Origin: a virus
Taxonomy: Duplodnaviria; Heunggongvirae; Uroviricota; Caudoviricetes
Direction: 5' to 3' (one strand)
Length of the DNA stretch: 36,150 nt
IMG/VR virus record: IMGVR_UViG_2534682139_000010
The position numbers were made by a program. Numbering within the stretch: position 1 is the first letter of the stretch; every line of letters starts with the position of its first letter. Of the stretch, positions 27,001 to 33,000 are shown in pieces.

Positions 27001-30000
27001 CCTGCACAGTCTTTTTGTTCAGTTCCGTTACTTCTGCCAGTGCAGATACAGACGGGTATGCACACAAATCGGCACCGCACATATCAGCAAGCCAGGTCAA
27101 TACTGACTTACTGGATGAACTGCCGGTTTTCACCTTTTTAGCCCATCGTAGCGCATCGATACTCATACGAACCCCAGACAGATATTTGTTTATCTGCAAA
27201 GTAATGTTGGTATTGCTGACGATACGCACGCTTGAAAGCAATAGCTTTTTCTATAAGTTCGTCAGTCTCACGTTCCACAACAGCTGGATCCGCAAAAAGT
27301 AGCCCTGACTCCACCACATCGCCATATTCTTTGTTTAACCCGGCGATCATGTACGTAATGCTTTTTCCGTCAGTAATTTCACGATACAACCTGAAATCAC
27401 TGATCCGGATAGCCGCCATAATTGCCGGAATCAGCGCCGTGAATTTTTCCCGCTTATCCCTGGTGTCGATAGATTTCCAGCGTTCGAATATCTTCACCCG
27501 GTTAACGCCCAGCGCCCGTTGATCAACCGCGCCATCATCAAACGTGACGCGTTGAACATCGATGTTCGGGCGTTCTTTCAGAGCCCAGAATGCTTCCGTG
27601 ATTAATATCGTCGCCTGCTCCTGTGTCATTCCTGGTCGGCATACCCAGGCATCCAGAGCCTCACAAACCTGTTCAGGGGTGATTTTCATTGTTCAACCGC
27701 CCCGCCCGCTTTGCCTTACGATATTCGTCATAAACTTTGGGGTCGTACTGAAGTTCCCCGCCGGATGCCTCTTGCAGGCGCATCGCGCGACCTTCAGGAA
27801 CCAGTTCCCCCCATGCAGCAATGCTTGCCAACCTAACTCCTGCGGCATTGGCAAGCTTTGTTTTGCTGCCAAAAAACGCTATAGCATCAATTTTCAACAT
27901 ATCGAGCTCCTTAGATTTTCCTAAGGAAACTAGATCGTAGAGAAACCTAAGTCAAGAAAAATTAGAATTCCCTAATATGAAAAACGAAACCTTCGGTGCT
28001 CGCCTCTTACATAGGCGTAAAAAATTAAAACTGTCTCAGGCCGCATTAGGTAAGCTGGTCAAAGTGGCTCACGTAACAATTTCTCAATGGGAAAGAGATG
28101 AAACACAGCCGGCGGGGAAAAGATTATTCGCACTGAGCCAAGCGCTTCAGTGCTCACCGACTTGGCTTCTTTTTGGGGATGAAGATAAACAACCAGGCGA
28201 ACCGATCCCGAATAATCAGCCAGCCATTCTGACAGAAGATCAAAAAGAGTTACTTCAACTGTTCGACGCACTGCCTGACTCAGAGCAAAAGGCCCTGTTG
28301 TCAGAGATGCGTGCTCGAGTTGAAAATTTCAACAAACTTTTTGAAGAACTACTTAAAGCTCGCAAAAGAAGCGCAAACAAATAACCCCTTTTTTCTCCAC
28401 ACCCTGTAATAAAAAGCACAAACTTTCAAACACTTGTGTTTTTTACACCAAAAAACTTAGGTTTTTCTACATAAGAATCTTGACCATATGCCTTAGGTTA
28501 TTCTAAATTTCACTCATCAAGACACCGCACGGTGTTCTCAGCAAACAGTTCCGCTACTCCGGCGTTAAGGGGAAATGAGGTCAGCATGGATACTATCGAT
28601 CTTGGCAGCAACGAATCTCTGGTGTACGGCGTGTTCCCAAACCAGGACGGCACGTTCACCGCGATGACGTATACCAAAAGCAAAACGTTTAAAACCGAAA
28701 ATGGTGCCCGTCGCTGGCTGGAAAGAAACTCAGGTGAGTGATATGGATTTCGACACAATCATGGAAAAGGCTTACGAAGAATACTTCGAAGACCTTGCCG
28801 AAGGCGAAGAGGCTCTCAGCTTCAGTGAGTTTAAACAGGCGCTTTCCAGTTAGGCAAAATCTAACGGCTGATAAGCGAAACAGCACCGCGAGGAATCAGT
28901 ATGCATAAACGAGAACCCGTCATCATCGCGCCAGACTATACCGATGATGAACTTTATGAGTGGATGCGCCAGAAAATTAATGCAGCGCAGGATCTGAAAT
29001 GGGCCAATGAAGCCAGGGCTAAGCAGGCTGAAAAATCTGTCCGCTCTGGAGCAGGATATCACCAATTTGGAAAAAGCAGCGGCATTAAGCATTGCCAGAA
29101 TGATTACATACCCGCGTTAATAGCTAACCAACGAGGATAAGGTTGGTAATTAAGGAGTTCTCTACGGGTCAGGTGGAGTGCGTGCGCCGGACACGGGTGA
29201 GCATCCGGCACGTTCTTTAAAAATCTGGATAGTCCCAACTTATTTAAACGGTTAATTATCTTGAGTTCATCCAGAACTTATTATTGCAAGCGGGGCAAAA
29301 AGTACGAAAATGAGCATCAAAGCGCATTATTTCCATTGGTTGCAGTGAACCGCCCCGGAAATCCTGGAGACTAAACTCCCTGAGAAAGAGGTAAACAGGA
29401 TGACTAAAAATACTCGTTTTTCCCCCGAAGTCCGTCAGCGGGCGATTCGTATGGTTCTGGAAAGTCAGGATGAATATGACTCACAGTGGGCGGCAATTTG
29501 TTCCATTGCCCCAAAGATTGGCTGTACGCCGGAGACTCTGCGTGTCTGGGTTCGCCAGCATGAGCGGGATACCGGGAGTGGTGATGGTGGACTCACCACC
29601 GCTGAACGTCAGCGTCTGAAAGAGCTGGAACGTGAAAATCGTGAACTGCGCCGCAGTAACGATATCCTTCGCCAGGCTTCCGCTTATTTTGCGAAGGCGG
29701 AGTTCGACCGCCTCTGGAAAAAATAATGCCACTGCTGGATAAGCTGCGTGAGCAGTACGGGGTCGGACCGGTATGCAGCGAACTGCATATTGCCCCGTCA
29801 ACGTATTACCACTGTCAGCAACAGCGACATTATCCGGATAAACGCAGTGCCCGTGCGCAGCGCGATGACTGGCTGAAGAAAGAGATACAGCGCGTATACG
29901 ATGAAAATCACAAGGTATACGGTGTGCGTAAAGTCTGGCGTCAGTTGTTACGGGAAGGTATCAGAGTGGCCAGATGCACTGTGGCACGTCTCATGGCGGT

Positions 30001-33000
30001 TATGGGACTTGCCGGTGTTCTCCGGGGTAAAAAGGTCCGCACTACCGTCAGCCGGAAAGCCGTTGCCGCATGCGACCGCGTAAACCGTCAGTTCGTGGCA
30101 GAACGTCCAGACCAGTTGTGGGTGGCTGATTTTACCTGGGTAAGCACATGGCAGGGCTTCGTTTATGTGGCGTTCATCATTGATGTGTTCGCCGGATACA
30201 TCGTGGGATGGCAGGTCTCATCATCCATGGAAACAACATTCGTGCTGGATGCACTGGAGCAGGCGTTGTGGGCCCGTCGGCCGTCCGGCACAATCCATCA
30301 CAGTGATAAAGGTTCTCAGTATGTATCGCTGGCCTACACGCAGCGGCTTAAGGAAGCCGGATTACTGGCATCAACAGGGAGTACTGGCGACTCGTATGAC
30401 AACGCGATGGCGGAGAGCATCAATGGTCTTTACAAAGCGGAGGTAATACACCGTAAGAGCTGGAAAAACCGTGCAGAAGTGGAACTGGCCACACTCACGT
30501 GGGTGGACTGGTATAACAATCGACGATTGCTGGAAAGGCTGGGCCATATTCCTCCGGCAGAAGCAGAAAAAGCTTATTATGCTTCCATCGGAAATAATGA
30601 TCTGGCAGCCTGAGTTCACAGATAAAATACTCTCCAGGAAACCCGGGGCGGTTCACAGTACAGATATTACCTTTTTTCCAAAACATTGTGGGCAAAGATG
30701 CACTGTTATCTCGGTATCGCCTATAAATTGCTTCTTGGAATACACAAGAGTTCCAGAATCAAGCTTGTTAAGTTTGTAACCTTCCGCCTGTTGCTGAAAG
30801 TCTTCTATCTCTGCAATTTTTGCTTTGAGAGATGCGGCTTCTTCCTGATAAGAGCGCACCATCTCAATGAGCGATACGCATTCAAACTGAACAGACGTAA
30901 GTTTTGAAAGCATATCGCTGACAGCGGAATTTATCTCAGTTTGAGTTTTGCATTCAGAATACCCTTTGCCATTACCGCAGTTTCTTTGATTGCCGACATT
31001 GCTGCTGAGAACTCAACTATCACGTTACATACTCTTCTCGTTGTTGGGGATATCCAGATTATACAAATTTCTTGTTGTTGGGGAATAACAGGAACCACCT
31101 CGCCTGACGTGGTTAAAAGCAGGCACACAACGCGAAAGCGTACGGCGAGGTAGCTGGTTCATAGATAGCCTGTCGTTAAATTTTCGTCGACCGTGCGCTT
31201 CCGGTTGTGGCAGTCCGCGAAATGGCGCGGCGGTAAGTATGGCTGGGGTTTCCTCCATTGCTCCAGAAAATGCACCGGGTTGTCAGGTTGACCATACGCT
31301 TAAGTGACAACCCCGCTACAACGCCCTCTGTTATCAATTTTCTGGTGACATTTGGCGGTATCAGTTTTACTCCGTGACTGCTCTGCCGCCCTTTTTAAAG
31401 TGAATTTTGTGATGCGGTGAATGCGGCTAAGCGCACGCGGAACAGTTAAAACCAAAAACAGTGTTATGGGTGGATTCTCTGTATCCGGCGTTAATTGTTA
31501 ACTGGTTAACGTCACCTGGAGGCACCAGGCACTGCATCACAAAATTCATTGTTGAGGACGCGATAATGGAAACGTTATTACCAAACGTTAATACGTCTGA
31601 AGGTTGTTTTGATATTGGAGTTCTGCTCAGTAACCGGGAGTTTACTGAAGATGCCATTAAGATGAGAAAATATGAACCTTATCTTCTTAATGATAATTCC
31701 ATACTTTCCAGAATTGCCCTTCTTGAACTTGGTATTATCGGAGAACAGCAGTGACTTCAGCGTTTGCACTGATAATGACCGTTTTTCTTATAACGGGTGA
31801 GCCGCAGAATGTGATTACCGGAATTTATTACAGTAAGTCATCCTGCATTCAGGTAAGGGACGAACAAAAAATCCCCGGTGAATGCCTCCCGTTAAAAAAA
31901 GTATCGCTGTACCTGAATAACGAAACACCGGCTGGATAACCCGCCAGCCATATTAACGCCATACCAACGGATTAAAAATGCCAGCAATGGCAGGAATTTG
32001 TTCATCCTTAAAATGGTTATGAGGTTTATCAATGAACGCTGATAAAGAAGAAATTGCACTATATTACGAAGCCAAAAATGACAAAGTCAGAAAACGCCTT
32101 GGGATTAAAGGTGGTTTTTACTGGCGCACAGCAAAAAAATTATCGGTTGCAATATCACGTGGTGTTGCTGCAATGGACGATGCCGGATTTGACGAAGAGG
32201 ATTTTAAAAAACCCATCCGCGTCCATTTACCCGTTGTGAATGACCTTCCACCGGAAGGTGTGTTTGATACTGAATTCTGCAACCGATACGAAAAAGGCGG
32301 AGAAGATGGTATCACAATGATACTTATCGCGCCCTCTGTTCCGGACAAACCAGCCAGTACTGACAATACCAACGTCAACGGCGAAGACATGGCTAAGATT
32401 GAGGAGAATATGCTTCTTCCGGTTTCAGGTCAGATTCTGCCTGTTCGCTGGCTGGCGCAACACAACAGCGAAAAACCGCTCACGCACGTTTCACTGGACA
32501 AACTGCGCGCATTACATAACGCACAGGATGAAAAACTTCCCGCCGTTACCGCGCTGGCCATCTCAAATAAAGCAGTGCAACTCGAACCGCTGGAGCTTCG
32601 GGATTTGTACAAACTGGTGCGAGACACTGACAAAGTTTTCCCCGCCCCCGTAAATTCGGACCTGGGACTGATGACCTCTTTTATCGAAGCATACCTGGGC
32701 GCTGACTACACCGATCGCGGTCTGCTTACAAAAGAGTGGATGAAAGGAAATCGTGTTTCACGCATCAGCCGCACGCCATCCGGCGCTAACGCTGGCGGCG
32801 GCATTCTTACCGATCGCGGCGAAGGTTTTGTCCACGATGATGCGTCAGTGGCGCGTGACGTAGCCACTGGCGTACTGGCCCGTTCAATGGACGTGGATAT
32901 TTATAACCTTCATCCCGCGCACGCTAAACGCATTGAGGAAATTATCGCTGAAAATAAACCGCCATTTTCTGTGTTTTTCAGCAAATTCATCACCATGCCG

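Follow-up and report, generated by a model that had tools for sequence, protein, structure and literature searches.

An IS629 insertion upstream of dicF and dicB in a Qin-position prophage of O103:H2-type Escherichia coli and its possible effect on their induction

The 36,150-nt stretch of caudoviral DNA filed as IMG/VR virus record IMGVR_UViG_2534682139_000010 (hereafter the window) holds a relative of the dicBF operon of E. coli K-12, in which a copy of the insertion sequence (IS) IS629 lies upstream of dicF and dicB, raising the question of whether these two genes can still be induced from the operon's DicA-controlled promoter. In K-12, the small RNA (sRNA) DicF is made from a polycistronic RNA initiated at dicBp, which lies upstream of ydfA, as evidenced by reverse-transcription PCR products spanning ydfA to dicF; primer extension revealed no internal promoter, DicF and dicB both being expressed only from the DicA-repressed upstream promoter, and the transcript is processed by RNase III to a 190-nt precursor and by RNase E to the 53-nt DicF (PMC10448788). 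Deletion of dicA in K-12 raises dicBp activity 22-fold, and one earlier study, as noted in the same paper, had proposed that a promoter lies upstream of dicB (PMC10448788). The original prediction for this locus took dicF and dicB to be transcribed from the DicA-repressed promoter via ydfA, an assumption backed by these K-12 experiments (PMC10448788), and proposed that the IS could either uncouple them from DicA or silence them by polarity. The analysis described here favors, with a probability of roughly 0.5, the reading that promoter-driven induction of dicF and dicB from this locus is attenuated, partly or fully, through Rho-dependent polarity. Attenuation was rated as the most likely outcome, followed by unimpeded read-through and then by low constitutive expression driven by the IS.

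The window is ~100% identical to complete genomes of O103:H2-type E. coli that make Shiga toxin (STEC). The region is a lambdoid prophage that retains replication, lysis and terminase genes and whose integrase gene adjoins rspB, the chromosomal position occupied in K-12 by the cryptic prophage Qin. Four IS629 copies, all on the plus strand, are found in the window, and the insertion upstream of dicF and dicB is the third, with the following parts:

29343-29345, no strand: left copy of the target-site duplication CAG (a single CAG is present at the empty site of strain 12009)
29346-30655, plus strand: intact IS629/IS1203-type element of the IS3 family, 1310 bp, co-oriented with the operon (inverted repeats, transposase models, empty site)
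29400-29726, plus strand: orfA, 108 aa (NF033516 IS3-family transposase match)
29681-29797, plus strand: ALIL frameshift pseudoknot (120 bits)
29726-30613, plus strand: orfB, 295 aa (NF033516 IS3-family transposase match)
30656-30658, no strand: right copy of the target-site duplication CAG (again against the single CAG of 12009)

The assignment to IS629/IS1203 follows from a length of ~1.31 kb with inverted repeats, overlapping orfA and orfB reading frames joined by a -1 frameshift pseudoknot, and a target duplication with a matching empty site. The terminal inverted repeats read TGAACCGCCCCGG.../...CCGGGGCGGTTCA, their 42-nt arms being 76% complementary and the terminal 13 nt perfectly so, and the first 200 bp (29346-29545) share 98.2% identity with elements that RefSeq names IS1203 in O157 strains Sakai and EDL933. 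The RefSeq/PGAP annotation likewise treats copy 3 as an intact transposase gene with a programmed frameshift.

In O103:H2 strain 12009 the exact empty site is preserved (...TTGGTTGCAG/TACAGAT..., the stroke marking the junction) with a single CAG and flanks that are 99.95-99.96% identical, which, together with the CAG duplication around 29346-30655, confirms the predicted position of the element between the ydfC-like gene and dicF. Its distribution was assessed among 5426 complete E. coli genomes, where the module from ydfA to dicB occurs at 99.9% identity or more in 17, five with the IS and 12 with the empty site. The carriers (5/5426 overall) are UTAK-14, CEC12044, WL1277, WL1467 and FWSEC0007, all O103:H2-type, and the empty-site genomes include 12009, one O45:H2 strain and two genomes of ~4.9 Mb; PV16-126, considered as a sixth carrier, was rejected on finding the empty site there. 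Since it is present in independent assemblies, the insertion is real, and the numbers of occupied and empty sites in near-identical modules, together with its overall rarity, mark it as a recent, derived change restricted to a sublineage, the empty sites being most simply ancestral. No published description of IS629 at the CAG of 29343-29345 was found in the literature searched. The insertion is a new instance of a well-known type of event, an ordinary lineage-specific IS629 polymorphism.

Besides the IS, about 0.7 kb of extra DNA had been placed between the ydfC-like gene and dicF, a part of the original prediction that does not hold, as this DNA is native to the prophage and present in IS-free genomes; the idea that the IS brought it in was rejected on the same ground. 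The interval from the IS to dicF (30656-31338, 684 bp) is made up of the conserved dicF leader (225 bp) and part of a cassette of 590 bp, where K-12 has only ~30 bp: the K-12 sequence aligns to 28515-29211 and again from 31115. The gap between ydfC and dicF accordingly measures 340 bp in K-12 versus 886 bp here once the IS is subtracted, and the cassette architecture recurs in ~61 genomes. It contains a gene on the opposite strand, within which the IS lies:

29212-29345, no strand: left-hand segment of the 590-bp cassette, not present in K-12 (K-12 homology stops at 29211)
29256-29345, minus strand: severed 3' end of the phrog_1244 gene, its last 28 codons and stop (from translation of the IS-free 12009 sequence)
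30656-31023, minus strand: 5' part of the phrog_1244 gene, with a GTG start at 31023 (phrog_1244, 3.5e-38)
30659-31114, no strand: right part of the cassette, absent from K-12 (the K-12 alignment resumes at 31115)
31058-31085, minus strand: candidate promoter of the antisense gene, TTCCCC-16-TATAAT, with a position weight matrix (PWM) score of 9.4

One could therefore ask whether this gene, and not dicF or dicB, is the relevant target, the IS having inactivated a moron expressed in the lysogen, with any effect on dicF and dicB incidental. The IS does lie within the gene, costing it the final 28 residues and with them the second CxxC; the gene has its own candidate promoter with a perfect TATAAT, and its family is conserved across Enterobacteriaceae, where full-length homologues in prophages are 155-170 aa long; their N-terminal half resembles a coiled coil and their C-terminus has a CxxC...CxxC pattern. 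However, an A-run near 30944-30947 has lost 1 nt, a deletion shared with the IS-free 12009, so the gene was broken before the IS arrived and only an N-terminally truncated open reading frame (ORF) of 114 aa was left there. Nor did Pfam, NCBIfam or PADLOC provide a match that would suggest a function, and PHROG 1244 is itself an entry without one, all of which makes this the least probable of the explanations considered and a very improbable one. A label from one source, "predicted nuclease with TOPRIM domain", was set aside as an automatic name that no domain match backs. The remnant annotated today as an 86-aa ORF (30653-30913) takes its stop codon, TGA, from the end of the IS. The right inverted repeat holds a hairpin with a T-run (30646-30634, minus strand), the only such structure in the IS and antisense to the operon, which would halt the transcript of the antisense gene at the IS boundary. 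Unrelated antisense ORFs occupy the same slot between ydfC and dicF in other prophages (phrog_4274 at L007:2860-3069 and phrog_10348 at L008:3647-3880), and the phrog_1244 gene is found again at L004:5517-5985 on the minus strand. Judging from these sequences, the ydfC-dicF spacer looks like a variable accessory-gene slot within the early-left operon.

The immunity region ahead of the operon is laid out as follows:

27673-27900, minus strand: gene of a DicC-like (Cro-type) regulator (Pfam P22_Cro, 3.1e-13; 83% identity to K-12 DicC)
27910-27951, no strand: OR-like operator motifs between the dicC-like and dicA-like genes (an exact CTTAGGTTnnTCTA at 27938-27951 on the minus strand and a palindromic site with two mismatches at 27910-27925)
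27977-28384, plus strand: gene of a DicA-family repressor (NCBIfam NF007257 "transcriptional repressor DicA", 236 bits, cut-off 101; HTH_3; 60% identity to K-12 DicA)
28480-28509, within the segment 28456-28509, plus strand: dicBp-like (pL-type) candidate promoter TTGACC-18-TAAATT (consensus scan; PWM 12.8, the top score of the region)

The 14-nt motif CTTAGGTTnnTCTA occurs in two exact copies, at 28456-28469 and 28492-28505, around the -35 and -10 hexamers of the candidate promoter; there are three exact copies in all, and allowing up to two mismatches yields five matches against 1.8 expected. A divergent pair of DicA-family repressor and Cro-type genes, with an operator motif shared by both promoters, thus identifies a DicA/DicC module, the WL1467 annotation calling the latter gene "dicB transcriptional regulator DicC", and the layout matches the OL/OR arrangement reported from dicAC of K-12 (PMC10448788). 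The promoter and its operator motifs are probably functional in this prophage. Homology to K-12 DNA begins at 28515, just past the -10 of the candidate promoter, indicating that a heterologous immunity region precedes a transcribed operon common to both. Of the predicted DicA control, what stands is a DicA-family repressor and an operator-flanked promoter, and what has to be amended is the identity of the repressor: since this protein shares just 60% identity with K-12 DicA, and operators of its own accompany it, dicBF is probably controlled here by the prophage's own DicA-family repressor and not by a K-12-type DicA. Elsewhere in the prophage, 22300-22560 on the minus strand encodes an 86-aa protein with 71% identity to K-12 Rem, an antirepressor that relieves DicA repression, and as in Qin its gene lies next to hokD/sok (sok Rfam match at 22934-23083).

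Downstream of the promoter, the genes of the operon are arranged on both sides of the IS:

28586-28741, plus strand: ydfA (Pfam DUF1391, 5.3e-27; 98% identity to K-12 YdfA)
28743-28853, plus strand: ydfB-like ORF of 36 aa (35/36 identical to K-12 YdfB, without its last 6 residues; phrog_2061)
28901-29140, plus strand: frameshifted ydfC (identity to K-12 YdfC over ~44 aa, then out of frame)
31115-31338, plus strand: conserved dicF leader (~92% identity to K-12; fold z = -2.4)
31339-31397, plus strand: dicF sRNA (53 nt, 31339-31391) with terminator hairpin and T-run (Rfam RF00039, 77 bits, gathering 48)
31566-31754, plus strand: dicB (Pfam DicB PF05358, 3.7e-38, 129.5 bits, cut-off 27; NF049927, 111 bits, cut-off 100; 61% identity to K-12 DicB)
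31751-31939, plus strand: gene in the position of ydfD (Pfam DUF1482, 1.3e-13; 43% identity to K-12 YdfD)

PGAP marks ydfC as frameshifted both in WL1467 and in the IS-free 12009. The dicF sequence is identical to that of K-12 at 52 of 53 positions, with one substitution (an A12 variant), and ends in the terminator hairpin GGCGGUA...UGCCGCC followed by CUUUUU. An alignment of five prophages is near-invariant from ~31217 through dicF and the spacer to the start of dicB, one of the five lacking 31136-31216, and the start of the K-12 190-nt precursor falls, by homology, near 31202. As the leader begins 460 bp past the end of the IS, the region homologous to the K-12 processing sites is intact, and this conservation, taken with the K-12 precedent, suggests that RNase III and RNase E could still release DicF from any transcript that gets that far. 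The spacer between dicF and dicB (31389-31598, plus strand) gives a sub-threshold match to the Rfam family STnc100 (34.7 bits, gathering 47, E 4e-5), a full match to which (101.6 bits) lies elsewhere in the prophage at 18762-18928 on the minus strand; the spacer may form a leader-like RNA related to that family.

No promoter dedicated to dicF and dicB emerged: between the IS and dicF none on the plus strand rises above background, the best PWM score being 8.3. Within the window, scores of at least 11 occur ~0.12 times and of at least 7 ~3.7 times per kb per strand, and scores of at least 8 ~1.8 times per kb.

The sequence of events that would produce attenuation begins with a recent replicative hop of IS629 into the long untranslated spacer between ydfC and dicF of the early-left ("dicBF") operon, where the element landed inside the already frameshifted antisense accessory gene. 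This extended the distance from promoter to dicF from ~1.5 kb to ~2.8 kb, leaving the leader, dicF, its terminator and dicB untouched. With the repressor bound, the operon would be off and the insertion without effect; upon derepression, RNA polymerase would have to traverse the 1.3-kb IS in its sense orientation, and the greater part of the IS RNA (orfB) would be translated only after a rare -1 frameshift. Such ribosome-poor RNA would be subject to Rho-dependent polarity, resulting in a lower induction of dicF and dicB from this locus. IS2 in gal exemplifies the classical insertions of the IS3 family, whose polarity depends on Rho. In the read-through RNA the sequence AUCCUG of the left inverted repeat could moreover pair with the orfA start (CAGGAUG), in which case the IS RNA could be left untranslated and naked for Rho, the predicted pairing being weak and not significant (z ~0).

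Several observations weigh against attenuation. The scan predicted no plus-strand intrinsic terminator inside the IS, and the sense strand of the IS has more G than C (orfB 30% G, 23.5% C). By a simple C/G test, a single window resembling a Rho-utilization (rut) site touches the IS, at its right end, and two others lie in the antisense-gene DNA shared with IS-free relatives. Even the IS-free operon has ~1.1 kb of untranslated RNA ahead of dicB, so that the operon evidently tolerates long untranslated stretches, and the literature searched yielded no case of polarity by IS629 in this orientation. The sequence proxies for polarity, namely terminators and rut-like windows, are equivocal, the C/G window test favoring neither side.

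The same lack of a sense-strand terminator and the G-rich interior with few rut-like windows are what would be expected if the IS were a neutral passenger that polymerase crosses almost unimpeded, dicF and dicB remaining repressor-controlled and inducible and the IS serving as a neutral marker of the sublineage. Translation of orfA, which has a good Shine-Dalgarno sequence, would fit with this, as would the persistence of the insertion without further decay, implied by five carrier isolates from separate human, veal and pork-product sources, in which it is evidently tolerated and the flanks are 100% identical to IS-free relatives. This possibility is nevertheless the less probable one, a tentative second choice, since the ~0.9 kb of orfB needs a frameshift to be translated, so that much of the IS RNA would be free of ribosomes, and since insertions of the IS3 family have classically been polar.

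The opposite outcome, the uncoupling envisaged by the original prediction, would require that the transposase promoter or an outward promoter at the right end of the IS drives a low level of DicA-independent dicF and dicB expression. Between the stop codon of orfB (30613) and dicF there is no plus-strand terminator except a weak hairpin at 30915, and with the processing leader intact such an RNA could mature. The candidate for an outward promoter, CTGGCA-15-TAAAAT at 30602-30628, is weak, reaching a PWM score of only 7.5, in the range that recurs at ~3.7 per kb per strand, and no hybrid promoter is created at the IS flank, where the -35-like terminal hexamer TTCACA lacks a -10 at the proper spacing of 16-18 nt. 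Transposase promoters of the IS3 family are weak as well. DicF and DicB are toxic on overexpression (PMC10448788), so only very low levels would be tolerable. All in all, uncoupling is unlikely, well behind both attenuation and unimpeded read-through.

Whichever of these outcomes holds, the effect at the level of the cell would probably be small and any phenotype buffered, since the genome retains 4-5 further dicF loci in other prophages, the dicF precursor region being matched at 5-6 places per carrier genome. In enterohaemorrhagic E. coli (EHEC), DicF links oxygen limitation, via pchA, to activation of the enterocyte effacement locus (LEE), and represses stx2A (review PMC7873438). Natural variants in which one copy is cut from its promoter could show what each of the 4-6 copies contributes, and in practical terms the insertion can be used to recognize an O103:H2 sublineage as a clade and offers a natural setting in which to test the polarity of an IS within the dicBF operon.

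The protein IEE promotes excision of IS629 and is found in O103:H2 strains (PMC9943667), and in STEC O121:H19 IEE-mediated excision restored an IS-inactivated lacZ (PMC9397093). Because IEE occurs in O103:H2, it is conceivable, by analogy, that the present insertion is reversible. An extension of this idea makes the IS a reversible insulator, its insertion and precise excision switching one dicF-dicB module out of six among control by DicA, silence, and low constitutive expression driven by the IS, and shifting the dosage of DicF in the sublineage, with the co-oriented IS also coupling transposase mRNA and bursts of transposition to derepression. Were it true, the shifted dosage would touch LEE activation via pchA, stx2A repression and filamentation, and DicB would touch phage resistance; it is a speculative proposal and must be considered quite improbable.

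Compared with the K-12 Qin operon (dicC/dicA/dicBp-ydfABC-dicF-dicB-ydfDE), the locus has the same position by rspB and the same gene order, and shares ydfA (98%), dicF (52/53), the leader (~92%), a DicA-family repressor, a Cro-type DicC and a Rem-like protein (71%). Unlike Qin, it has a heterologous immunity (DicA 60%, with its own operator motif), a DicB of 61% identity, a frameshifted ydfC, the 590-bp antisense cassette between ydfC and the leader, and IS629 upstream of dicF; Qin carries an IS2 remnant far downstream, after a truncated exonuclease gene, whereas the present prophage keeps replication, lysis and terminase genes. As in the classical polar IS2 and IS1 insertions in gal, the IS is placed between a promoter and the distal genes of a polycistronic unit. 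It differs from gal in that the distal products are an RNase-excised sRNA and a small toxic protein, that the operon is normally repressed, and that polarity is here only predicted. No IS is more abundant in EHEC O157 than IS629, an established cause of gene inactivation and polymorphism (PMC9943667). The element type and the strain-level variation are those of other IS629/IS1203 polymorphisms of EHEC and STEC (PMC9943667), from which the present one is set apart by a site, the CAG at 29343-29345, occupied only in five O103:H2-type genomes.

The remaining IS629 copies of the window are co-oriented with copy 3, making four in 36 kb. Those at 4872-6181 and 8973-10283 (plus strand) are 99.3% and 96.4% identical to it, the second abutting, in relatives, a truncated terminase large-subunit gene. 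The fourth, at 34883-36150, runs to the end of the window and is 100% identical to copy 3 over the 1268 bp it has there; it starts ~92 bp into the prophage integrase gene (start ~34791), 4.2 kb downstream of copy 3, and its junction with that gene occurs in 0/5426 complete genomes. Its identity and proximity to copy 3 would fit local hopping of the kind that the improbable transposition bursts proposed above would bring. Copies 3 and 4 form direct repeats around dicF, dicB, the DUF1482 gene, the exonuclease gene and xis, and the entire module from dicF to xis would be lost if they recombined with each other.

IS629 has also entered dicBF operons of other prophages, hitting the exonuclease gene in both L007 and L008 and lying in or next to dicB in L006; the CAG site was accordingly rejected as a cross-prophage IS629 hotspot. 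In L006 (NZ_AP042519.1, strain OkiPb01684, 3939-5545), a RacR-type prophage, an IS629-type element lies between a truncated and an intact dicB, which reflects either a separate insertion of an IS into the dicB module or recombination there mediated by one. In the window itself, the exonuclease (RecE-like) gene, ORF 32032-34320, has one T fewer than WL1467 at ~34177, and the resulting frameshift yields a 762-aa ORF in place of the 805-aa product annotated in relatives.

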